From: an uncultured Lentisphaerota bacterium
GTDB lineage: Bacteria > Verrucomicrobiota > Kiritimatiellia > RFP12 > UBA1067
DNA length: 64,000 nt
NCBI GenBank assembly: GCA_900321255.1
Contig: ONVK01000001.1
Span: 16,907 to 80,906, forward strand
Direction of reading: 5' to 3'
Part shown: positions 3,714-56,598 of the stretch, piece after piece
Layout: every line of letters begins with the position of its first letter
How positions within the stretch are numbered: position 1 is the stretch's first letter
Notes under the pieces: model-generated
Seen by the model: only the letters and a program-made list of their open reading frames with translations
Database searches by the model: none
What the model was told of the DNA's origin: nothing
Made by a program: the position numbers and the translations under genes

Positions 3714-5094
3714 GACGAAGGAGCTGGCGTCCGGCAAGATCGGGCGCCTTCTTTTCAGATACTCGTGGCCCGCGCTGGTCGCGATGGCGCTCAACTCGTT
3801 CTACACCGTCGTCGACCGCGCGTTTATAGGCCACGGCTGCGGCGTCGACGCGATGGCGGGACTTCAGCTCGCGATGCCGGTCGTGATGTTCCTCACGGCG
3901 TTCGGCCCGCTCATAGGCGTTGGACACGCGTCTGTGCTGTCGATCAAGCTCGGCGCGGGCGATCGCATAGCCTGCGAAAAACTGGTTGGCGAGACGGTGG
4001 CGCTCAAGATCGCGTTCTATGCCGTCCTCATTCCGCTTCTCTACGTCTTCATCGATCCTCTGCTCGCCCTCTGCGGCGCGGGCGAGGTAACGCCGGGAGC
4101 GGCGGCCGCCGCGAAGTCGTATCTCCAGATCGTCCTCTTTTCGCATATCTTCTCGCATCTCGCGTTCGGCCTTTCCGCTCTGCACCGCGCTGAGGGAGGG
4201 GCGATCCGCTCGATGATGTGCATGATCGTCGGCTTCGGCGCGAACATCGTGCTCGATCCGATTCTCATCTTCGGCTTCGGCCTCGGCGTTGCGGGCGCGG
4301 CGTGGGCGACGAACGTCGCGATGCTGCTTTCTTGCCTCTGGGCGTTTTCATACTACTGGACTGGCCGGAGCGTCGTCAGGCTCAGGCTGCGCCGCATATG
4401 GATCTACCCGCAGCTTCTCGCGCGGACGCTCTCCATCGGCCTTGCGCCGTTTCTCCAGCAGCTTATGAGCGCGGTCATCATCGCCTCTCTCCAGATTGCG
4501 TTCACGAAGTGGATGCCCGATGAGGATGCGCGTACGGCGGAGATCGCCTCTCTCGGCGTCTTCAGCAGCGCGCTAATCCTCGTCATCATGCCGATACTCG
4601 GCTGCCAGCAGGGGCTTCAGCCGATCTTCGGGTACAACTGGGGGGCGAGGAACTTCCGCCGCGTCCTCGAAACCCTCAAGACCGGTTTCCTCGTCACGAC
4701 CGTCCTCTGCGTACTGGCGTTCGTCGTTCAGGTATTGCCGCCTTTCCCGACGTGGCTTGCGAGACTCTTCGTCGACAACGCCAACGAAGACCTTGTCGCC
4801 CTGTGTGCGCACGACCTTGCGCTTTCGAACTGCATGATCTGGACGATTTCGATCAACGTCGTCGCGACGACGTACTTCCAGTCGATCGGCAAGCCGGTTG
4901 TCGCCATCGTGCTTTCCCTTCTCCGGCAGGGGCTCGTGCTTCTCCCCATCATCTGGTTCCTTCCTCATTTTCTCGACGACAAGCCGTTCGCGATATGGCT
5001 TTCAATGCCGGTTTCCGACGTCCTCTGCCAGCTTGCTACGCTCCTGCCGCTTCTCCTGCACGCGCGTTTTCTCTCCCGTGTCAGGTCACGCTGA
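3694..5094 (+). CDS. MATE family multidrug efflux transporter
   Basis: 466 aa with 12 predicted TM segments and MATE-type N-terminal and mid-protein repeats (NSFYTVVDRAFIGH, GLQLAMPV). Confidence 0.8.
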   Translation: MSLSSSETKELASGKIGRLLFRYSWPALVAMALNSFYTVVDRAFIGHGCGVDAMAGLQLAMPVVMFLTAFGPLIGVGHASVLSIKLGAGDRIACEKLVGETVALKIAFYAVLIPLLYVFIDPLLALCGAGEVTPGAAAAAKSYLQIVLFSHIFSHLAFGLSALHRAEGGAIRSMMCMIVGFGANIVLDPILIFGFGLGVAGAAWATNVAMLLSCLWAFSYYWTGRSVVRLRLRRIWIYPQLLARTLSIGLAPFLQQLMSAVIIASLQIAFTKWMPDEDARTAEIASLGVFSSALILVIMPILGCQQGLQPIFGYNWGARNFRRVLETLKTGFLVTTVLCVLAFVVQVLPPFPTWLARLFVDNANEDLVALCAHDLALSNCMIWTISINVVATTYFQSIGKPVVAIVLSLLRQGLVLLPIIWFLPHFLDDKPFAIWLSMPVSDVLCQLATLLPLLLHARFLSRVRSR

Positions 5095-5224: not shown

Positions 5225-5250
5225 TCGGGGTCTTTGTTCAATCCCCCCTG

Positions 5251-5296
5251 AAGGCGGCCTTGCTTCTTTGTAAGTAAGGCCGCTTTCTTTTATCTT
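5251..5296 (+). terminator. trp attenuator, intrinsic terminator
   Basis: GGCGGCCTT / AAGGCCGCC stem (5253-5261 and 5276-5283) followed by TTTCTTTTATCTT. A preceding G-run/C-run (5227-5230, 5243-5248) can form an alternative antiterminator pairing. Confidence 0.55.
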
Positions 5297-8924: not shown

Positions 8925-9038
8925 AACGTGTAGATCGTGTAGAAATCCTGCATGTTTCTACACGTTCTACACGGCTAATTATCTTCGACAAGAGGATTTC
9001 AATTACGACACTATTTTAAAATCGAAACGATCACAATC

Positions 9039-10235
9039 ATGAAAACGACGAAACATTATGGACCATACGGCGGACAGTACGTCGCCGAAACGCTGATGGG
9101 GCCGCTTAACGAACTTGCCGCGGCCTATCTCGAAGCGAAGGAGGACCCCGAGTTCCAGCGCGAATTCGCGGCTCTTCTCAAGGACTATGTCGGGCGCGAG
9201 TCGCCGATCACCGTCTGCAGGCGCTTGTCCGCGAAGCTCGGCGGCGCGACGATAGCCCTGAAGCGCGAGGACCTAAACCACACAGGCGCCCACAAGGTCA
9301 ACAACACGATCGGCCAGGCGCTGTTGGCTAAGCGCATGGGCAAGAAGCGGCTGATTGCGGAGACCGGCGCGGGGATGCACGGCGTCGCTACGGCGACGGT
9401 CGCCGCGCTTCTCGGAATGCCCTGCGAGGTCTACATGGGCGCGATAGACGTGAAGCGCCAGGCGCCGAATGTCGAGCGCATGAAGATGCTCGGCGCGACA
9501 GTCCACGCAATCGAGGAGGGCAGCGCGACATTGAAGGACGCGATGAACGAAGCTCTCCGCGACTGGGTCACGAACTGTGACGACACTTTCTACGTGATCG
9601 GGACGGCTGCCGGCCCCTATCCGTATCCCGAGATGGTGAAGGATTTCCAGTCCGTAATCGGACGCGAGGCGCGCCGCCAGTGCCTTGAGAAGTTCGGGCG
9701 TCTCCCCGACCAGGCGATCGCGTGCGTCGGCGGCGGGTCCAATGCCATCGGGCTCTTCGCCGGGTTCTTGGACGACGCGGGCGTAAAGCTCGTCGGCGTC
9801 GAGGCGGCTGGCAGGGGAATCGCGACGGGCGAGCACGCGGCGTCGATAAACGGCGGGCGGCTCGGCGTCCTGCACGGCGCCAAGACGATGCTGCTACAGA
9901 CAGCAGACGGCAACGTGATCGACACGTATTCCGTCTCGGCGGGTCTTGACTACCCGGGCGTCGGGCCGGAACACTGCTATCTCCACGACACGGGGCGCGC
10001 CGAATACTCGTCGATCACCGACGACGAGGCGATAGCCGCGTTCGACGACTTGTGCCGCTACGAGGGCATCATCCCCGCGCTCGAGTCGAGCCACGCGCTC
10101 GCGGAGGCGATAAAGCGCGCTCCGTCGCTTCCCAAGGAGACGATCCTCCTCGTGTGCCTCTCGGGGCGCGGCGACAAGGATCTCGAAAACATACTCGCAT
10201 ACAAGAAGAGCCGCTCTGCCGGCCAGGACATGTAA
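9039..10235 (+). CDS. trpB: tryptophan synthase beta chain
   Basis: [16 protein letters not shown] (PLP lysine), GGGSNAIG, and full-length TrpB similarity. Confidence 0.95.
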
Positions 10236-10292
10236 AACGCCTGCACGTTTCTGCACGTTCTACACGGCTAATGACATACAGGACGAAAAATC

Positions 10293-11623: not shown

Positions 11624-11848
11624 TGTATGATCTTTCAGACAGGATTAAGTGATTATGTTTTAGACAGGATTAACAAGATTAACAGGATTAAGAATTTTAG
11701 AATGGAGAACAGGAGATACAGGAGTTTTTGGAGGCGCCTTCGGCGCGGGGTCTGGGGTGCAACCCCAGTCTCCCTCCTGCCTCTCCTGTCCTACCTGCCA
11801 AAATCCTGTTAATCCTGTAAATCCTGTCAAAAAAAAGAAAGGTTAAAA

Positions 11849-16020: not shown

Positions 16021-16998
16021 ATGAAGATCAAGTTCATCGCCAACATCAAGGGGATATACCTTGGATATTCGTTTGAACCTTCCGATGTAGTGACCATTGG
16101 GCGCGAGATCGGAAATACCATTGCGCCGATAAACGTTGACGGCTTTTCGCGTCATCACGCGCGCATCTTCTTCAAGGACGGTGCATGGTATGTCGAAGAC
16201 GTCGGCAGCACGAACGGCACCTACCGCAACCGCGTGAAGGTCGAAGCCCCGACAAAGATCGAGAAGGGTGATTCGATCAGGTGCGGGCTAATGGAACTTG
16301 CCTCGTTTGAATTCGAACCCTCTGCCGCGCCCGCTCCTGTCACCGCGGCCGAGCCGCCGAAGCCGGTTGCACCGGTCAAGCCCACCGAGACAGTCAAGCC
16401 CATTGAGCCGCCGAAGCCCATTGCGCCGGTCAAGCCCATTGAACCGCCGAAGCCGGTTGCACCGGTCAAGCCAGTCGAGCCGCCAAAGACAGTCGCGCCT
16501 GTCAAGCCGGCGGAGCCAGTTGCCCAGCTTGAGCCAGTGACGCCGCTTGACCCCGTCACGCCTCTAGAACCCGTCGCGCCTCTAGAACCCGTCGCGCCGC
16601 TTGAGCCAGTGACGCCGCTTGAGCCAGTTGCCCAGCTTGAGCCAGTGACGCCGCTTGAGCCGATTACGCCGCTCGAGCCGATCACGCCGCTTGAACCGGT
16701 CGAGGAACTCAAGCCTGTTTCACCTGTGAAGACGGAGAAGGTCCCAACCCCTGTTGCCGCCCCGGCGACGCTTCGCCGTCCGACGATACCGGGGCTGAAG
16801 CCCGGCCTCAAGCCAGGGCTCAAGCTTCCCCAGAAGGGCGGGGCGCTCCCCGCCGGCCTGAAGCTCCCGCCCAAGGGAGGTGCGCTTCCGACGGGCCTCA
16901 AGCTTCCGCCAAAGGGGGGTGCGCTCCCGACGGGCCTCAAGCTTCCGCCCAAGCCCGGTCTCAAGCCCGGTCTCAAGGTCCCCGGCAAGGGCGTATGA
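16021..16998 (+). CDS. FHA-domain protein with proline-rich tandem-repeat tail
   Basis: An N-terminal 100 aa FHA fold ([24 protein letters not shown]). This is followed by repeats [18 protein letters not shown] (x10) and [13 protein letters not shown] (x3). Confidence 0.7.
16330..16990 (+). repeat. coding tandem repeats (three families: about 33-bp, 18-bp and 39-bp units)
   Basis: Directly visible periodicity in the DNA and in the translated PKPxAPVKP / LEPVTP / [13 protein letters not shown] units. Confidence 0.8.
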
Positions 16999-35122: not shown

Positions 35123-35765
35123 CCTCCGAAAGTTGACGGTTGATAGGTGCGCTTCCGTCGCGCGGTTTAGCCGTGTAGAGGTGTAGAGGGGGAGAGTTTG
35201 TAACGCAGAGGCGCGTGCGCGGAGGGGATATTTCGGCTTAAGGCTAAAAATCGCCGCGCCGCCCGATGGCTCGCCCTCGCTTTCGCTTCGGGTTGGCTCG
35301 TGCACCGCACGAGCCACCGACAAGCGGCGGTTACCGCGGGGCTCTCGTTCGGCTACAGGGTCGCGACGGCTCTCACACATCAGACAATTAACCGAGTTTA
35401 GCCATAACCGCCGCGCAAGCGGGGCTCGCGTTTTGTAGCGAGCCAAGCCGAGCGAAGCGAGTGCCGAGCCGTGCCTCGGCGCATATCACTGGTTGCGTAC
35501 GCAAGTCACTCTTACGCCTGCGACCTTCCGCCTGCCTCACCCGCGACCATCGGCTCGGCTTGGCGATAGCCATGCGGCAGAAAACGCATTGCGCCAAAAC
35601 ACGCCCCACCGCGCACGCGCCTTGACTTTCCCCGCCGCTACGCCGACTCTGATCTGCCCCTAATCGACCCTAAACATTACTAATCCGACCTTGCCGCTCG
35701 TGCGCGGCAAATCTGCCGAGATTTATATTTTGCAAAATCTTGCCACTCTACCATGAGTGGTTTTG

Positions 35766-37871: not shown

Positions 37872-37886
37872 AAAAACAGGAAATTG

Positions 37887-37913
37887 CCCCCTTGCGTTCG
37901 CAAGGGGGTTTTT
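37887..37913 (+). terminator. intrinsic terminator
   Basis: CCCCCTTG-CGTTCG-CAAGGGGG hairpin followed by TTTTT. The U-tract overlaps the TTTTGG of the next promoter. Confidence 0.6.
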
Positions 37914-43376: not shown

Positions 43377-45946
43377 TGTTCCCAGTTGAAGAGAAGATAG
43401 ATGATATTCGTCGCGCGCTCGCGGCGAACAGGGATGTTGTCCTCACTGCGCCTCCCGGAAGCGGCAAGACTACTTGCGTGCCGCCGGCGCTCTTGGATGA
43501 GCCGTGGCTTGTGGGCAAGAAGATCGTCATGCTTGAACCGCGGCGGCTTGCCGCGCGCAACTGCGCGGCCTACATCGCGCGTAGACGCGGCGAGGCGGTT
43601 GGAGGCACCGTCGGCTACCAGGTGCGGCTTGAGCGCAAGATTTCCGCGGCAACGCGGCTTGAGATCGTGACGGAAGGGCTGCTCACTCAGCGTCTTCTTT
43701 CAGACCCGGAGCTTTCGGATGTCGGGCTCGTGATCTTCGATGAATTCCACGAGCGCTCGCTCCCCTGCGACACCGCGTTTGCGCTCGCGCTCGAAGTGCG
43801 ACGTGCGCTTAGGCCGGATCTTCGCATCCTTGTCATGTCAGCGACGCTCGACGCCGATGAAGTCGCCGCGCATCTCGGTGACGCCGACATCATTCGCGCC
43901 GAAGGGCGCATGTTTCCTGTTGAGACAAATTACCTTGGCGACATGTCGATGACGGCGGCGATATCGAAGGCACTGAAGGAAACGGATGGCGACATGCTTT
44001 GCTTTCTGCCGGGAGAGGGCGAGATAAGGCGCGTGCAGGAGGCGGTTGGCGCAGTGCGCGATGTCGATGTTCTTCCGCTCTACGGCAGTCTCCCCAAGGA
44101 AGAGCAGGACAGGGTATTTGAGCGCGGCGGACGGCGCAAGGTCATTCTCGCTACGTCGATCGCCGAGACTTCGGTTACGATCGAGGGCATTTCGACGGTG
44201 ATCGACTCGGGGCTTATGCGTGTGCCGCGCTTTCGCCCTGCGTCCGGGATGTCGGGGCTTGTGACTTTGCCGCTCACGCAAGACCGCGCAGAGCAGCGCA
44301 GAGGTCGCGCGGGGCGCTTGCGCGCGGGAGTTTGCTATCGGCTCTGGAGCGAGGGCGAGCAGCAGTCGCGTCCAAAGAAGATGATGCCAGAGATACTTGA
44401 CGCCGACCTTTGCTCGCTCGTTCTGACAAGCGCGGCGTGGGGTGCGCTTGGGCGCGAGGATCTGCCGTGGATGACACCGCCACCTGCGTCGAACTGGGAT
44501 CAGGCGGTAGGGCTTCTCAAGATGCTTGGTGCGCTTGATGGCGACGGACGGCTCACGAAGAAGGGCGAGGCGATGGCGAAGCTCCCGATGCATCCAAGGT
44601 TGGCGAATATGGTGATTGGTGGTAGCCGTATAGAAGGGGTTGGTGAGGCGTCGCTGCTGGCGGCGATTGTAGAAGAGGGGAATAGAAGCCGCGAGACGGA
44701 TATTAGGAAGATTGCCGAGGAGATCAGGGAGACGCCGAACCGTCCGTTTTCGAAAAGGGTGCTTCAGTTGGCACGGCGGTTTAACAAAGGGTCAGACCCC
44801 TCTGACACAGTAGCTGATACAGCTAAAGCTGCAATCAGCTACTGCAGTCAGAAAGGTCTGACCCTAGAAGGCTCTCTTCTTGCGCTTGCGTATCCTGACA
44901 GGGTTGCGAAGAACCGGGGAAATGGAACGTTCCGCATGGTGTCTGGGCGCGGCGCATTCCTCGACCAGTCCGATCCGCTTGCGAAGTCGCCTTATCTCGT
45001 CTGCTGCGAGCTCGACGACCGCGCGGGCGATGCGAAGGTCTTTCTTGGCTGTCCCATTGGCGAGGACGAGATCGAAGACCTCTTCGGCGATCGCATAACC
45101 GAGGAGCCGTACTGCGCGTGGGACAGGCAGAACGACCGCGTGAAGAGCGTCGTTCGCCGCAAGCTTGGCGAGATGACCCTTGGGGAGAAGCCGCTCTCGG
45201 CGGCAGACTCGCGCCACTCGGTGGACGTCGACGCAAGGATATCGGCGGCGCTTCTTGATGGCATTCGCCAGAAGGGAGTCGAGAATCTTCCCTGCTGGAC
45301 GAAGGAGTCGCGGCAATTCCGCGCAAGAATGGCGTTTTTGTCGCGGGTTTCTGGAAAAGGGTCAGACCCCTCTGACACAGTAACTGACACAGCTAAAGCT
45401 GCAGTCAGCTACTGCAGTCAGAAGGGTCTGACCCTAGACGCCAATAAAAATGGGGGTGAGTGGCCAAATCCAACTGATGGGGCGATTCTTGCCGCGTTGC
45501 CTGGTTTCATCGGCGGGATGACGAAGTGGAAGGATTTGGAGCGGCTTGACCTCTTTTCGGTCTTTGACTTTATGCTCGCGGAAGCGGGGCATGATAGGCG
45601 CGAGCTCGATCGTCTTGCGCCTACGCGCATGGAGGTTCCGAGCGGCAGCCACATGCTGATTCACTACGAGGGTGACGAACCGACGTGCGAAGTGCGGCTT
45701 CAGGAATGTTTCGGGCTTATGGAGACGCCGAAGGTCGCAGGCGGGAAAGTTCCTGTCGTAATGACGCTTCTTTCGCCTGCACAGCGGCCAATCCAGATAA
45801 CGAAAGACCTTGCGGGATTCTGGCGAGAAGGGTACCAGCTTGTCCGCAAGGACATGCGTGGCCGCTACCCGAAGCACTATTGGCCGGAAGACCCGTTCAC
45901 CGCCGTCGCGACACGTCGCACCGTCAAGCGTGCTGGCCAGGCCTGA
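43376..45946 (+). CDS. hrpB: ATP-dependent RNA helicase HrpB (with two in-frame 27-codon palindromic insertions)
   Basis: DEAH-box helicase motifs (GSGKTT, DEFHER, SAT), the HA2 and C-terminal HrpB domains. 856 aa versus about 809 typical; the excess is accounted for by two copies of KGSDPSDTV.DTAKAA.SYCSQKGLTL. Confidence 0.85.
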   Translation: MFPVEEKIDDIRRALAANRDVVLTAPPGSGKTTCVPPALLDEPWLVGKKIVMLEPRRLAARNCAAYIARRRGEAVGGTVGYQVRLERKISAATRLEIVTEGLLTQRLLSDPELSDVGLVIFDEFHERSLPCDTAFALALEVRRALRPDLRILVMSATLDADEVAAHLGDADIIRAEGRMFPVETNYLGDMSMTAAISKALKETDGDMLCFLPGEGEIRRVQEAVGAVRDVDVLPLYGSLPKEEQDRVFERGGRRKVILATSIAETSVTIEGISTVIDSGLMRVPRFRPASGMSGLVTLPLTQDRAEQRRGRAGRLRAGVCYRLWSEGEQQSRPKKMMPEILDADLCSLVLTSAAWGALGREDLPWMTPPPASNWDQAVGLLKMLGALDGDGRLTKKGEAMAKLPMHPRLANMVIGGSRIEGVGEASLLAAIVEEGNRSRETDIRKIAEEIRETPNRPFSKRVLQLARRFNKGSDPSDTVADTAKAAISYCSQKGLTLEGSLLALAYPDRVAKNRGNGTFRMVSGRGAFLDQSDPLAKSPYLVCCELDDRAGDAKVFLGCPIGEDEIEDLFGDRITEEPYCAWDRQNDRVKSVVRRKLGEMTLGEKPLSAADSRHSVDVDARISAALLDGIRQKGVENLPCWTKESRQFRARMAFLSRVSGKGSDPSDTVTDTAKAAVSYCSQKGLTLDANKNGGEWPNPTDGAILAALPGFIGGMTKWKDLERLDLFSVFDFMLAEAGHDRRELDRLAPTRMEVPSGSHMLIHYEGDEPTCEVRLQECFGLMETPKVAGGKVPVVMTLLSPAQRPIQITKDLAGFWREGYQLVRKDMRGRYPKHYWPEDPFTAVATRRTVKRAGQA
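44786..44866 (+). repeat. 81-bp near-perfect palindromic element inserted in-frame in hrpB (copy 1)
   Basis: AAAGGGTCAGACC...CTGACACAGTAGCTGAT-ACAGCTAAAGCTGCA-ATCAGCTACTGCAGTCAG...GGTCTGACCCTAG. Arms are mutually complementary; 27 codons. Confidence 0.8.
45356..45436 (+). repeat. 81-bp palindromic element inserted in-frame in hrpB (copy 2, same orientation, 570 bp downstream)
   Basis: About 94% identical to copy 1 and encodes the same 26-27 aa peptide. Confidence 0.8.
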
Positions 45947-47069: not shown

Positions 47070-48266
47070 TCAAACCTTGAAATGCTTCTTGATCTTTGAA
47101 ACCTTGTCCAACTTCTCCCACGGGAATGCACTGCGGCCGAAGTGGCCGTAGGCCGCAGTGTCCTCGTATTTCCAGCCCTTTGGCTTGAGAAGCCCGAGGT
47201 CCTTGATGAGCGCGTACGGGCGGAAGTCGAACACTTTCCCGGACGCGAGCATTTTTTCGAGCTTCTCGTTCGTGACGCCGTGCGCGGTGCCGAACGTCTT
47301 GACGCAGAAGCTGACCGGCTTGTCGACTCCGATCGCATAGGCGACCTGGATCTGGCAGCGGTCGGCGAGGCCTGCGGCCACGATGTTCTTCGCAGCGTAG
47401 CGCGCGTAGTATGCGGCGGAGCGGTCGACTTTCGACGGGTCCTTGCCGCTGAACGCGCCGCCGCCATGCGCGGCCATTCCGCCGTAGGTGTCGACGATGA
47501 TCTTGCGCCCGGTGAGCCCCGAGTCGCCGCACGGCCCGCCGATGACGAACTTGCCGGTCGGGTTGATCAAGAACTTTGTCTTGGGCGTGAGAAGGCCGGT
47601 CTTTGAGAGGTAGCCCGTTGCGAGCTTCTTGATTTCGTCGTAGTGCTTTTTCGTCGCACCCGCTTCAGTAGTCTGGTGCGAGATAACTACGGTGTCGATT
47701 GCGACAGGGCGGCCGCCTTCGTAGACGACAGAAAGCTGGCTCTTCGAGTCGGGGCGAAGCCAAGAGTACTTCTTGTCCGTCTTGCGGAGCTTCGCGAACA
47801 TCTTGAGGAGCTCGTGCGAATAGACTATCGCGGCGGGCATAAGCGACTTCGTCTCGTTTGTCGCGTAGCCGAACATCATGCCCTGGTCGCCTGCTCCCTG
47901 GTTTTCCTTTTTCCTGCGCGAGACGCCCTGGTTGATGTCGGGTGACTGGCCATGGAGGAAATTGTAGTACTTGAACGTCGCGTCGGCGAAATGTTCTTCG
48001 GGGATCGTGTAGCCGATTTTCCTTGCGACGCGGCGCGCGATTGCCTCGGTGTCGATTTTCTTGAAGTCCTTGCACGTTATCTCGCCCACGTTTACGACGA
48101 CGTCGGGGCCAACTGTCGTCTCGCATGCGACGTGGGCGCCTTTGTCATTTGCGAGGCACGCGTCGAGGATTGCATCGGATATCTGGTCTGCCACCTTGTC
48201 GGGATGTCCTTCCGAAACGGACTCAGACGTAAAAATGTGGCGATGGTTCTTCTTTGTCATTTTCAT
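47070..48266 (-). CDS. metK: S-adenosylmethionine synthetase
   Basis: GHPDK, GAGDQG, DTYGG and GGGAFSGKD motifs. Confidence 0.95.
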   Translation of the reverse strand: MKMTKKNHRHIFTSESVSEGHPDKVADQISDAILDACLANDKGAHVACETTVGPDVVVNVGEITCKDFKKIDTEAIARRVARKIGYTIPEEHFADATFKYYNFLHGQSPDINQGVSRRKKENQGAGDQGMMFGYATNETKSLMPAAIVYSHELLKMFAKLRKTDKKYSWLRPDSKSQLSVVYEGGRPVAIDTVVISHQTTEAGATKKHYDEIKKLATGYLSKTGLLTPKTKFLINPTGKFVIGGPCGDSGLTGRKIIVDTYGGMAAHGGGAFSGKDPSKVDRSAAYYARYAAKNIVAAGLADRCQIQVAYAIGVDKPVSFCVKTFGTAHGVTNEKLEKMLASGKVFDFRPYALIKDLGLLKPKGWKYEDTAAYGHFGRSAFPWEKLDKVSKIKKHFKV

Positions 48267-48543: not shown

Positions 48544-48598
48544 GCTCAGAGGCCGGAGAGCCGACTGGCGCAACACACCTTTGTTTGGAGGCGAAGCG

Positions 48599-48690
48599 AA
48601 GTTGGCGGTGGAGCGAAGGTCCGAGCGAGGGGATACGGCGTATTCGCCGAGGGTTCCCCGAGGAGGAGCCTTCGGACGCCGCCAACAAGC
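48599..48690 (+). repeat. 92-bp palindromic repeat element, copy A
   Basis: About 95% identical to the reverse complement of 55701-55792. Terminal inverted repeats (C)TTGTTGGCGGTGG / CCACCGCCAACAAG and central palindrome CGGCGAATACGCCG. Confidence 0.8.
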
Positions 48691-48723
48691 GAAGCTTGCG
48701 CGTGCTTCGTAAGCCATCAATTA

Positions 48724-48732
48724 TGGTATAAT
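48724..48732 (+). promoter_or_regulatory. extended -10 promoter TGGTATAAT for hydG
   Basis: ATTATGGTATAAT about 47 nt upstream of the hydG ATG. Confidence 0.45.
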
Positions 48733-48778: not shown

Positions 48779-50209
48779 ATGGCGGATGTATCGAAGATAA
48801 GGAAGTTCAAGGATGCGGACGACTACCGCAGGAATTTCGTCGTTCAGGAGGAGATAGACAAGTATCTCCCCGGCGGAAGGCATTTCATCGACGAGGCGGA
48901 GATAAACCGCTGCATAGCCGAGGTCGCGGAAAAGCCGGCGGATCCGGCGCGCGTGAGGGAGATAATCGCGAAGAGCGAGTCGACGTGCGAGACGCTTCTC
49001 CCCGAGGAGACGGCCGTCCTCATGTCCGTCACGGATCCGGCGCTCTTCGAGGAAATGCGTGCGGCGGCGGACCGCATCAAGCACAAGGTCTACGACAACC
49101 GCATCGTGATGTTCGCGCCGCTCTACATGTCCAACCTCTGCGTGAACGGATGCAAGTACTGCGGCTTCCGCGAGGGGAACGCAGCGCAGAAGCGCCGCGT
49201 CCTCACGATGGACGAACTCAAGGCGGAGGTCGACGTCCTCGCAGGGCGCATCGGCCACAAGCGACTCATCGCGGTCTACGGCGAGCATCCGACGACTTCG
49301 ACGGAGTACATCGCCGAGACGATCGAAACTTGCTACAACCGCAAGGTGAAAGCGCCGAAGACGGGCGCGCCGGTGGGGATCCGCCGCGTCAACGTCAACG
49401 CCGCGCCGCTTCCGGTCGAGGACCTCAAGGTGCTGAAGTCCGTCGGCATCGGAACGTTCCAGGTCTTCCAGGAGACGTACAACAGGAAGCTCTACGAGGA
49501 GATGCATCCGTCGTGGAGCGTGAAGGGCAACTACGACTGGCGCACGACGTGCCGCGACCTGGAGCGCTGGTTCAACATCGGGCCGCACACGCTGTCGTTC
49601 CCGCGCCTCGAGCCGGCGAGCGGAACGCGAGTCCCCGAGGAGAGCCCGTGGCTCATCGACGACGACACGTTTGCGCGCATACTCGTGATCGCGCGCCTCT
49701 CGGTGCCGTACACGGGAATCATCGTTACGGCGCGCGAGAGCCCCGAGAGCCGCAACCGCGTCCTCGACCACGGCATGACGCAGCTCGACTGCTCGTCCAA
49801 CATCGCTATCAAGGGCTACAGCGACTTCGCAAACGAGGCGCACCAGGAGAAGGAGCGCCAGCAGTTCATGCTCGGCGACAACAGGTCCATCGACGAGATG
49901 GTGCGCTACCTCGCCTCGCGCGGCACGATCACTAGCTTCTGCACGGCTGGATACCGCTGCGGCAGGACGGGCGGCTGCATCATGGACGCGCTCAAGACCG
50001 GGCGCGAGGGGAAGTTCTGCAAGATCAACGCGGTGCTCACTTTCCGCGAGTGGCTTGACGACTTCGCCTCGGACGAGACGCGCAAGATGGGCGACGCGCT
50101 CATCGAGAAGGAGCTTGCGGGCATCAAGGAGTGGCTGCCGAAGTTCTATCCGACGGTCATGAAGCAGTACGAGGCGACTTGCCGCGGCGAGCGCGATTTG
50201 TTCTTCTGA
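48779..50209 (+). CDS. hydG: [FeFe]-hydrogenase maturase HydG (radical SAM tyrosine lyase)
   Basis: CVNGCKYCGF radical SAM motif. At 476 aa it carries a C-terminal extra Cys cluster (CTAGYRCGRTGGC) absent from the shorter ThiH. Confidence 0.7.
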   Translation: MADVSKIRKFKDADDYRRNFVVQEEIDKYLPGGRHFIDEAEINRCIAEVAEKPADPARVREIIAKSESTCETLLPEETAVLMSVTDPALFEEMRAAADRIKHKVYDNRIVMFAPLYMSNLCVNGCKYCGFREGNAAQKRRVLTMDELKAEVDVLAGRIGHKRLIAVYGEHPTTSTEYIAETIETCYNRKVKAPKTGAPVGIRRVNVNAAPLPVEDLKVLKSVGIGTFQVFQETYNRKLYEEMHPSWSVKGNYDWRTTCRDLERWFNIGPHTLSFPRLEPASGTRVPEESPWLIDDDTFARILVIARLSVPYTGIIVTARESPESRNRVLDHGMTQLDCSSNIAIKGYSDFANEAHQEKERQQFMLGDNRSIDEMVRYLASRGTITSFCTAGYRCGRTGGCIMDALKTGREGKFCKINAVLTFREWLDDFASDETRKMGDALIEKELAGIKEWLPKFYPTVMKQYEATCRGERDLFF

Positions 50210-54859: not shown

Positions 54860-55699
54860 ATGAAGACTGCAACTGTTAGACTCGTTTTCGGCGTGCTCAT
54901 GGCTGCCGCTCTTGCGACGGGATGCGCATCATCGAGGTATCCGGCGAACGCCAAGCTGAAGACTGGCTCTGGCCCTCTCGTACAGGCCCATCGCGGCGGG
55001 CGATTTGAATACGACGACAACGCCCTAGGCGGTTTCGAGATGTGCCTTTCGCGCGGGATAAAGGGTTTTGAGCTCGACGTGCGCTACACTAAGGACTGCG
55101 TGCTCGTTGTGATGCATGACGAGAGCCTGGAGCGTACAACCAACGGAAAGGGAATTGTTGAGGACACGACTTTCTCGGATCTCTGCAAGCTTCGCCTCAA
55201 GAAGTCTTCCGAGCAGGTGCCGTCTCTTTCGGAAGTGCTTATGGCGATGCGCGGACGCGAGGACATTTTCATGGAGATCGAGATGAAGGCGGGCCCGAGC
55301 GACTTCTATACGCCATATGTTCTCGAGGACTACTGCCGCCGGCTGAGCGCGATGGCCAAGGTCCTGATGAAGCCCGGGACGTATGCGTTCACCTGCTTCA
55401 ACGAGAAGACGCTTGCGACGATGCGCAAGGTCGATCCAGATGCGCCGATCGGGCTTATCGTCGGCACTCCGCTTGAGGACGCGCACATCGCCAAGGCGAA
55501 GGAGCTTGGCTGCTGCAGCGTCGCGCCTCGTGCGGAGACCACCAAGGAGATGGTGGAGAAGGCGCACAAGGCCGGGCTGACGGTTTGCCTGTGGATGTGC
55601 CAGGACAAGGCGACGTGGGACGAGTGCGCGGCAAAGGGCGCCGACCGCGTCACGAGCGACTTCCCTCTCAAGCTCACCCGCGAGGTGGAAGTGGAATAA
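54860..55699 (+). CDS. glycerophosphodiester phosphodiesterase (lipoprotein)
   Basis: Lipobox ATGCASS. HRGG and E.D.R GDPD catalytic motifs (AHRGGRFEYDDNALG, ELDVRYTKD). Confidence 0.8.
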   Translation: MKTATVRLVFGVLMAAALATGCASSRYPANAKLKTGSGPLVQAHRGGRFEYDDNALGGFEMCLSRGIKGFELDVRYTKDCVLVVMHDESLERTTNGKGIVEDTTFSDLCKLRLKKSSEQVPSLSEVLMAMRGREDIFMEIEMKAGPSDFYTPYVLEDYCRRLSAMAKVLMKPGTYAFTCFNEKTLATMRKVDPDAPIGLIVGTPLEDAHIAKAKELGCCSVAPRAETTKEMVEKAHKAGLTVCLWMCQDKATWDECAAKGADRVTSDFPLKLTREVEVE

Positions 55700-55700
55700 C

Positions 55701-55792
55701 ACTTGTTGGCGGTGGCCGAAGGCTCCTCCTCGGGGAGCCCTCGGCGAATACGCCGTATCCCCTCGCTCGGACCTTTGCTCCACCGCCAACAA
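55701..55792 (-). repeat. 92-bp palindromic repeat element, copy B (inverted relative to copy A)
   Basis: Begins 2 nt after the GDPD stop codon, ends about 35 bp before the rplY promoter, and is followed by the hairpin AATTCGC-TCTTGC-GCGAATT. Confidence 0.8.
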
Positions 55793-55806
55793 GTTAAAAT
55801 TCGCTC

Positions 55807-55836
55807 TTGCGCGAATTGGGCCAGTTTTGGTATAAT
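55807..55836 (+). promoter_or_regulatory. promoter (-35 TTGCGC, 18-bp spacer, TGGTATAAT) of the ribosomal protein cluster
   Basis: AGTTTTGGTATAAT, with a 75-nt leader before the L25 ATG. Confidence 0.5.
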
Positions 55837-55911: not shown

Positions 55912-56598
55912 ATGGATCAGATAAGGATCAAGGCGGAAGCGCGTACCGAACAGGGTACGGGCGCTGTCCGCCGCCTTCGCCGCACGGGGATGATTCCCGG
56001 TTCGGTGATGAAGATGAAGAAGGGCGGCACTGAGCTCATAAAGCTCCCTGCGCACGACTTCATGATGGCGACGCGCGGCCACGCGAGCAAGCAGCTCCTG
56101 GTCACGCTCGATCTCGACGGCAGGGAAGTTCCCGCGCTCATGCGCGAGATGCAGAACGACGTCCTCGCCGGAACACCAATTCACGTTGATTTCAGCGAAG
56201 TGTCGCTGACCGAGAAGGTCCGCGTCACGGTTCCGCTGTATCTCGTGGGCGAACCTGTCGGCGTGAAGCTCGGCGGCGGCGTTCTCGAACAGACGCTCCG
56301 CACGATCGACGTCGACTGCCTGCCGACCGACATCGCGGAGAAGTTCGAAGTCGACGTCTCCGCACTCGGGCTCGACCAGACGCTGTTCGTCCGCGACCTC
56401 AAGCTCGGCGAGAAGCAGACCATCGTCACGCGCGGCGAAGTGCCCGTGGCGGTCGTCAAGGCCCCGGATGACGTTCCCGCTGCCGGCGGCGCTCCTGCTG
56501 CCGCTGCGGCCGGTGCGGCGCCCGCTGCTCCCGAAGTCATCAAGAAAGGCAAGGAAGAGGAGGCCGCTGCGGCCGACAAGAAGGAGGAGAAGAAGTAA
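55912..56598 (+). CDS. rplY: 50S ribosomal protein L25 (Ctc form) with Ala/Pro/Lys-rich C-terminal tail
   Basis: MDQIRIKAEARTEQGTGAVRRLRRTGMIPG is the L25 N-terminus. Tail APAAAAAGAAPAAPEVIKKGKEEEAAAADKKEEKK. Confidence 0.85.
   Translation: MDQIRIKAEARTEQGTGAVRRLRRTGMIPGSVMKMKKGGTELIKLPAHDFMMATRGHASKQLLVTLDLDGREVPALMREMQNDVLAGTPIHVDFSEVSLTEKVRVTVPLYLVGEPVGVKLGGGVLEQTLRTIDVDCLPTDIAEKFEVDVSALGLDQTLFVRDLKLGEKQTIVTRGEVPVAVVKAPDDVPAAGGAPAAAAAGAAPAAPEVIKKGKEEEAAAADKKEEKK

Follow-up and report, generated by a model that had tools for sequence, protein, structure and literature searches.

A hairpin-forming palindromic repeat family clusters past gene ends in uncultured rumen and gut Kiritimatiellia

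Among the described systems that stand closest to the repeat reported here are the REP elements, the Correia elements and related MITEs, and the RPE of Rickettsia. A REP unit is a palindrome of 20-40 nt, tagged at one end with GTAG or CGTC (PMC3733652), and in Escherichia coli these REP elements are the targets of the insertion sequence IS621 (PMC11208160; PMC1525189). For Correia elements an inversion in place has been reported, and the RPE are palindromic repeats that are found in frame in protein-coding genes (PMC10969869). Here we describe a non-coding palindromic repeat family of uncultured rumen and gut Kiritimatiellia which, in our judgement, is probably a selfish, non-autonomous element resembling MITEs, REP, ERIC and RPE, that accumulates past gene ends and supplies no -35 hexamer to the promoters beside it.

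The window, being the whole stretch of 64,000 nucleotides that was analysed, contains one long inverted pair according to a repeat search, 48601-48689 against 55702-55790, 89 nt long and 96% complementary (BLAST E value of about 1e-36 between the copies), so the two inverted, near-identical copies described in a first-pass annotation of this DNA are real. Copy A (48601..48689) shows on the plus strand the orientation that we call F (GGCGGTGGAGCGAAGGTCCGAGCGAGGGGATACGGCG...) and is situated between the divergent promoters of metK (47070-48266, minus strand) and hydG (48779-50209). Copy B lies on the minus strand, the plus strand reading R, the reverse complement of F; extended to 92 nt it covers 55702..55793, begins 2 nt past the stop codon of the GDPD gene (54860-55699; TAA at 55697-55699) and is followed by rplY (55912-56598). 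The 14-bp terminal inverted repeats that had been assigned to both copies, CTTGTTGGCGGTGG...CCACCGCCAACAAG, are perfect in copy B but imperfect in copy A (..GAAGTTGGCGGTGG...GACGCCGCCAACAAG). The central palindrome was recovered in both as an apical CGGCG-loop-CGCCG hairpin, CGGCG-TATT-CGCCG at 48636..48649 (plus strand) in copy A and at the equivalent 55742-55755 in copy B; this stem-loop is invariant among the matches listed, but the census was itself seeded with that 20-mer. The long imperfect hairpin anticipated earlier was also obtained on folding, with RNA energies of -55.6 and -56.5 kcal/mol for copies A and B (z -6.4 and -6.8; none of 200 shuffles folds as well) and DNA energies of -27 and -31 kcal/mol. 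No third copy was detected in the 64-kb window, neither with the 20-mer at up to 3 mismatches nor with an nhmmer profile of the family.

BLAST of metagenome loci (numbered with L) against the window revealed that copy A is repeated jointly with a 57-nt extension on its left side (48544..48600, plus strand), this extra extension being borne by one subfamily. The unit 48544-48691 recurs at 90-94% identity in L114 (3379-3525), L115 (1158-1304), L116 and L119, and the left flanks in L096 and L067 resemble the extension of copy A. L114 had raised the suspicion that the 7-kb segment flanked by copies A and B was inverted, which was rejected as synteny is collinear; the pattern in L114 is explained by the 57-nt extension belonging to the repeated unit. 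Among the matches listed, the metagenome-assembled genome (MAG) closest to the window is RUG12088, L043 and L105 being the orthologues of copies A and B, and the orthologue of copy A is present both in L043 (RUG12088) and in L132, where the region is 99% identical. An exact look-up of the window's HydG returned no record, and its cluster carries no name.

The window holds further repeats and RNA genes. A second, unrelated palindromic repeat of 83 nt occurs as two direct copies 570 nt apart (44786-44868 and 45356-45438; 95% identical), each folding at about -54 kcal/mol with z -8.6 to -9.9. Besides these there are a 42-nt direct repeat (8938-8979 and 10231-10272; 88%), a 32-nt inverted repeat of AATCCTGTTAATC-like units (11658-11689 and 11802-11833) and a tandem array of about 11 units with a period of 18 nt (16371-16730; 60-77% identity). 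A tRNA at 166-237 is followed by a tmRNA at 266-618 (174 bits), the permuted-tmRNA model of Rfam scoring 57 bits on 187-388, which overlaps the tRNA and the tmRNA.

By scanning one genome per species for the exact apical 20-mer GATACGGCGTATTCGCCGAG, we collected at least 111 stretches, and the BLAST follow-up of this census counted at least 117 copies in at least 20 MAGs, seven of which contain at least 11-19 copies each, in a sample biased both by its 20-mer seed and by being drawn from MAGs, which break at repeats. The window copies are accordingly no chance pair but members of a repeat family, as the first-pass annotation had supposed. Many copies are located at contig ends. Nearly all hosts among the matches listed are Kiritimatiellae/Kiritimatiellia or related "Verrucomicrobia/Lentisphaerae" bins from ruminant or human gut; four of these loci, in other phyla, match the 20-mer alone by chance, and all others possess the whole element. 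The unit consists of an 80-nt core, or 79-98 nt when the outer stem or palindromic extension is included, and has no gene of its own. On the F strand the conserved core of about 80 nt reads GGCGGYGG-AGCGAAGGTCCGAGCGAGNGGATACGGCGTATTCGCCGAGGG-TCCNCGAGGAGGAGCCTTCGG-CCRCCGCC, the complement being R.

Covariation was assessed on 99 distinct copies (alignment A1) with the structure predicted for copy B. Pairing holds in 87% of the cells of this alignment, changes on both sides are seen at 22 of the 34 pairs, and 313 cells are compensatory; not one of 500 shuffles reaches the observed value, and partners slid by 1-3 columns pair at about 40%. The pair types are diverse (GC38/CG30/UA21; GC69/AU22; GC73/AU15/UA8), and the outer stems GGCGG../..CCGCC change pairwise with subfamily-specific extensions (GTGA..TCAC, GTTC..GAAC, GTT..AAC, GCGA..TCGC). 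This covariation strongly supports the maintenance of the hairpin by compensatory changes. One-sided departures comprise 84 GU versus 90 AC, favouring neither strand, so that the pairing is strand-neutral; as RNA, F folds better than R in 105 of 107 copies, with means of -52.4 versus -45.7 kcal/mol. The strong covariation, the conserved asymmetric internal loops and the invariant apical stem-loop would also suit a multi-copy gene for a structured non-coding RNA, or else a riboswitch, attenuator or other cis-regulatory RNA, but the copies lie in both orientations with respect to their neighbours, in convergent intergenic regions, inside an ORF and in tandem, and a promoter of their own is not consistent. 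Moreover, the compensation proceeds by Watson-Crick pairs, G-U being in excess on neither strand, which fits pairing at the DNA level or strand-neutral pairing, and no Rfam family reached its gathering score in the whole window, the sole match at E<=10 around copy A being RT-4 at chance level (15.3 bits against a threshold of 73.5 bits). An RNA gene or regulatory RNA is hence a highly improbable account of the family.

Both copies had been placed about 30 bp from a promoter, and TGGTATAAT indeed occurs 34 bp past the element end in each case. At copy A it is the extended -10 of hydG (48724..48732, plus strand), which adjoins the repeat and lies outside it; between the two is a small hairpin, CGAAGC-TTGCGCGT-GCTTCG (48690..48709, plus strand), that is locus-specific and outside the repeated unit 48544-48691. 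At copy B it forms part of a block upstream of rplY (55798..55836, plus strand), likewise outside the repeat, in which the small hairpin AATTCGC-TCTTGC-GCGAATT is followed by TGGTATAAT at 55828-55836. The short GC hairpin with CTTGCGCG that the first-pass annotation reported beside both copies is present (CTTGCGCG at 48695-48702 and 55806-55813), but both times it falls outside the repeat, at differing offsets, and among the matches listed CTTGCGCG adjoins three flank clusters only. Its TTGCGC, which had been thought to supply a -35 hexamer, is separated from TATAAT by 25 nt at copy A and by 18 nt at copy B, a spacing because of which it cannot be the same -35 in both copies, and this part of the earlier claim is not supported. 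In the window TGGTATAAT is encountered eight times, against 0.03 expected by chance, six of the eight being without the element: it is simply the common extended -10 of the host organism. Promoters with an extended -10 (TGn) need no -35.

The same picture emerges from related genomes. Among the matches listed, an outward TGnTATAAT within 80 nt was found on 22 of 112 de-duplicated element sides, 13 times at the F-3' end and 9 times at the F-5' end, at a variable distance of 8-71 nt, and for orthologous copies upstream of gltX this -10 distance differs between two MAGs (8 nt and 28 nt). The rplY block TTAAAATTCGCTCTTGCGCGAATTGGGCCAGTTTTGGTATAAT recurs in L112 and L114 with 97-99% conservation and with 210-470 nt of other DNA upstream of it, and the homology to the window begins exactly where the element ends. 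Upstream of hydG, two further relatives, L130 with a HydG of 88% identity and a different neighbour and L133 with one of 84%, have neither the element nor the CTTGCGCG hairpin, and in both the sequence is retained from position 48719 of the window onward, including TGGTATAAT and the 5' UTR. The idea that the repeat, as a mobile module beside promoters, provides TGGTATAAT with an insulator and with a -35, namely the TTGCGC of the small hairpin next to it, would explain the constant 34 bp at the window copies, the outward TGnTATAAT within 80 nt at about 20 of 56 independent loci and the fact that TTGCGC is about 3-4 times commoner in the element flanks than in random 50-nt windows, and it could invoke Correia and other MITEs, which carry promoters (PMC10969869). 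Against it, TTGCGC and CTTGCGCG are not part of the repeat and differ in offset, the -10 is met at either end and at any of these distances, relatives in which no element is adjacent have conserved promoters of hydG and rplY, one third of the loci lie between convergent genes, and copies exist within an ORF; an extended -10, finally, does not require a -35. The promoter-module reading is thereby already largely refuted, and we regard it as very unlikely. Of the module as first proposed, the dispersal remains, the copies being scattered and varying among close relatives in the manner of mobile or recombinogenic DNA, but its tie to promoters does not. Judged from their conservation, the TGGTATAAT sequences beside the window copies are ordinary promoters of hydG and rplY, whose proximity to the repeat is incidental.

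The location of the copies with respect to genes was determined with a crude in-house codon-score gene caller, least precise for starts, on which account distances to gene starts are rough, and orthologous loci were collapsed by their flanks into 56 clusters. Among the matches listed, 39 element-bearing intergenic regions could be classified as 20 co-directional, 6 divergent and 13 convergent, versus 178, 28 and 19 of 225 element-free regions, which amounts to an enrichment of convergent regions (13/39 vs 19/225, odds ratio 5.4, p=1e-4). The position of copies relative to promoter motifs had been set beforehand as a test of the association proposed in the first-pass annotation, and the outcome is divided: in co-directional regions, a TGnTATAAT serving the downstream gene is commoner where the element is present than where it is not (12/19 vs 30/131, p=7e-4), but it is found on only 22/112 element sides, and the 13/39 convergent regions have no promoter. 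Taken together, the convergent enrichment and the promoter excess in co-directional regions point to location at transcription-unit ends, not to promoter function; the repeat copies mark transcription-unit ends. At about 20 independent loci among the matches listed, a copy starts 0-30 nt past a stop codon, and there is frequently an overlap between this codon and the outer stem (e.g. ..GGTTCGtgaGGCGG..). With respect to the upstream gene, copies no more than 30 nt from a stop are R in a ratio of 39:6, or 20:6 after collapsing loci (p=0.009), and those within 15 nt show an R:F ratio of 17:3; at gene starts no orientation bias was seen. Since the orientation relative to the majority coding strand of the tile is skewed as well (36:20), the bias at stop codons (26 independent loci) is inseparable from a replication-strand bias.

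Such a position invites the explanation that the repeat is primarily a device at the 3' end selected by the host, be it a terminator, a read-through insulator or a stabiliser of the mRNA 3' end, and that its spread is secondary. The copies 0-30 nt past stops with their orientation bias, the enrichment of convergent regions and of regions followed by a promoter, the very stable and covarying hairpin and the retention of copies at orthologous sites in four to seven MAGs all agree with it, and for ERIC and REP an effect on the stability of the upstream mRNA has been reported (PMC10969869). However, in neither orientation is the hairpin followed by a U-tract (flanks ..CCGCCAACAAGTTAAAATTC, ..CCGCCTCACTGCCGC and similar), so the repeat is not a canonical terminator, and a terminator scan of the window called neither copy and gave no enrichment over shuffles, by which the terminator role suggested in the first-pass annotation loses its basis as far as a canonical hairpin is concerned. 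Hairpins with a T-run that do have the canonical form exist elsewhere in the window (e.g. 5250-5287, 3726-3748 and 37886-37909), and copy A, between two divergent promoters, has nothing to terminate. The orientation seen past genes is the one with the less stable RNA, F being stabler, whereas a simple 3' mRNA hairpin under selection would lead one to expect the reverse, and the site after the GDPD gene is full, flipped, truncated or empty in close relatives, unlike a needed signal. A device of this kind as the primary explanation is therefore unlikely. Integron attC-like recombination sites, which are imperfect hairpins following cassette ORFs in fixed orientation, might come to mind in view of imperfect hairpins of 80-100 nt that start at or near stops with an orientation bias. 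Yet the copies are found among housekeeping genes (metK, hydG, GDPD, rplY, gltX) without cassette arrays, only two of them in the 64-kb window and these in opposite orientations, their ends GGCGG/CCGCC do not fit a GTTRRRY core, and no integrase was seen among the neighbours, which leaves this possibility with a negligible probability.

As a separate observation on unit ends in the window, the canonical hairpins with T-run at 37886-37909 and 35742-35761, near tRNA genes, run straight into TGGTATA, the -10 of the next unit.

The variability of the family is best seen at the site after the GDPD stop, which exists in several states in relatives of 84-99% protein identity. A full R copy is found in the window, L105, L075 and L114, and a full F copy, i.e. 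flipped with the outer stems unchanged, in L113; the last 22 nt remain in L112, L117, L118 and L120, the first 21 nt in L119, an interior deletion leaves CTTGTTGGCGGCGGCCAAC in L115 and L116, and in more distant relatives the element is absent. In gltX (glutamyl-tRNA synthetase, GluRS) of seven MAGs the element is present in frame in R orientation (L023:1263-1452, L103:1786-1975, L040:1834-1912, L028, L102, L084 and L027; homologue proteins P0121-P0240), where it is translated as ..SAAAEGSSSGSLGEYAVSPRSDLRSAAE.. between two Pfam domains, the catalytic one, which ends at residue 278, and the one for anticodon binding, which starts at residue 325. The in-frame unit measures 99 nt, or 33 codons, with flanking codons conserved at the protein level, and is found in many metagenome homologues too. 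GluRS homologues that are about 90% identical have 437-444 aa with no copy, 446 aa with a remnant, 456-457 aa with one copy, 489 aa with two and 518 aa with about three copies. By this comparison of homologues, the repeat appears as the generator of length variants of an essential enzyme. A clean empty site in gltX was not found among the homologues, and the boundaries of the insert are unreadable because homologues lacking it have a different native linker. In P0188 an F copy and an adjacent half R copy are still in frame; an in-place flip was considered for this protein and rejected, as an F copy beside a half R copy is no simple inversion. All six reading frames are open in 53 of 85 distinct cores, against 4% of shuffles, an excess that counts as one family-level observation since all copies are related.

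Repeats of other kinds were noticed beside copies of the family. A GC-rich repeat (..GCCGCGCCGCCCGATGGCGAGGCCTGCGCCCGAC..), at times in tandem, shares intergenic regions with the hairpin repeat, giving rise to mosaic clusters (L112:3332-3801, L115:890-1160, L119:3340-3570; also beside L096:1838 and L067:636), and short arrays of GAGTTGG/GGTTAGG-like units, repeated in tandem every 7 or 14 nt or so, directly adjoin copies of the GTTGGCGG subfamily (L079:5690-5790, L085:6700-6840, L087 and L089). Upstream of hydG, at the position of copy A, L133 (1250-1480) bears two copies of a different hairpin repeat (GGCCAGCAGCCAGTAGCCAACAACC...GGTTGCTGGTTGCTG), whence this site appears to collect palindromic repeats. 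In L130 (1530-1545), upstream of hydG and without the element, TTGGCGGCGG resembles the element's left terminus, as a remnant or by chance.

Transposition of the repeat is inferred from its distribution and polymorphism. A general target-site duplication was not found, 23 of 46 independent copies being without a flanking direct repeat; matches of 2 nt (TC..TC) fall within the conserved termini, and RAGCGAA on both sides is confined to the GTTGGCGG subfamily (window copy A, L045 and L088), where it is the same at different loci. None of the 607 neighbouring ORFs in the 8-kb tiles was a recurrent mobilising transposase, only orthologous housekeeping genes recurring, and the plasmid, phage and IMG/VR collections gave no match to the repeat.

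An insertion sequence of the IS110 family, whose ends are unrelated to those of the repeat, was found inside copies of the family. It is 1462 bp long, encodes a 335-aa recombinase (PF01548 + PF02371) and splits three different repeat copies at the same position (L119:3693-5154, L091:6028-7488 and a remnant at about 242-309 of L009). The junctions read, in the orientation of the insertion sequence, GGCTCCTC-CT-[IS]-CT-CGGGG, with the CT core flanking the insertion at either end. The non-coding sequence of 274 nt at the 5' end of the insertion sequence contains TCCTCCT, equal to the left target plus CT core in the same sense, and, 16 nt beyond, CCCCGAG, the complement of the CT core plus right target. 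In bridge RNAs, the LTG and RTG guides have been described with this layout (PMC11208160; PMC1525189), and the region is a plausible candidate for a bridge-RNA guide.

We thus favour the reading of the family as selfish, non-autonomous palindromic repeats, which could work as follows. Copies would be multiplied and reshuffled by enzymes acting in trans, would be lost through deletions across the hairpin and would survive mainly where they do little harm, namely just past stop codons at transcription-unit ends, in convergent intergenic regions and, in one case, in a surface linker of GluRS where they are in frame. A copy past a gene would be transcribed as a stable 3' hairpin, which may stabilise the 3' end or hinder read-through, and the preference for R past genes would probably act via effects on the mRNA or on translation termination. 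Beside the hydG and rplY promoters the element may have landed, or a deletion may have brought it there. A host role at mRNA 3' ends is possible, and the strong covariation together with the retention at orthologous sites in several species could reflect a host function. In a bolder version, which we hold to be quite doubtful, the repeat was recruited genome-wide as a 3'-end device, sitting within about 15 nt of stops in one orientation and forming an mRNA hairpin that exposes a conserved, anti-Shine-Dalgarno-like internal loop CUCCUCCUC, and would also be the programmed landing pad of a bridge-RNA IS110 element. If this were true, the repeat could influence how translation terminates or how ribosomes are released, could protect the 3' end or could be a 3'-UTR-derived regulator, in a phylum that has no cultured model for RNA biology.

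For the Kiritimatiellia of rumen and gut, a group known from MAGs alone, a first description of an abundant family of palindromic repeats is thereby provided. The repeats break assemblies, alter the intergenic architecture between close relatives, give rise to length variants of GluRS and are targeted specifically by an IS110-family element for which a bridge-RNA guide is plausible. The practical lesson for annotators is that a hairpin repeat beside a strong -10 is no evidence of promoter function in the repeat. The orientation bias past stops is a small lead on the 3'-end biology of Kiritimatiellia.

Compared with known systems, the repeat shares with intrinsic terminators a stable GC-rich hairpin right past the stops at transcription-unit ends, but it has no U-tract, its stem is far longer than usual, and its copies take either orientation and are found between divergent promoters and within an ORF as well. 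The likeness to MITEs and other palindromic repeats (ERIC/IRU, Correia/NEMIS, RUP, BOX) is closer. Like these, it is short and non-coding, has terminal inverted repeats, folds as a whole unit into a hairpin, is dispersed in tens of copies per genome that are mostly intergenic and often at gene 3' ends, and varies among close relatives in presence, orientation and copy number, as seen at the GDPD and gltX sites; the flipped copy at the GDPD site can be likened to the in-place inversion of Correia elements. It differs in having no sequence similarity to ERIC/IRU, Correia/NEMIS, RUP or BOX, no promoter boxes at fixed positions as Correia elements have, and a host from an uncultured lineage of the PVC group. 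It has most features of a MITE, except for a general target-site duplication and a known parent insertion sequence, none with matching ends having been found in the 8-kb tiles.

The RPE resemble the repeat in behaviour only, the host phylum and GC content being different: in both an in-frame palindrome in an essential gene, here that of GluRS, is translated as a hydrophilic insert between domains, but in-frame copies are found in one gene here versus dozens in Rickettsia, and most copies here are intergenic. From REP elements the repeat is set apart as an 80-nt asymmetric hairpin that ends in GGCGG/CCGCC and has no GTAG/CGTC tag; with arms that agree only to about two thirds and an asymmetry that is conserved, it is no simple doublet of one REP. 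What it shares with REP, REPIN and BIME is that of extragenic palindromes near gene ends, at times in tandem or in a mosaic with other repeats, and with the REPs of E. coli in particular that it forms the specific landing site of an IS110-family element, which in E. coli is IS621 (PMC11208160; PMC1525189).
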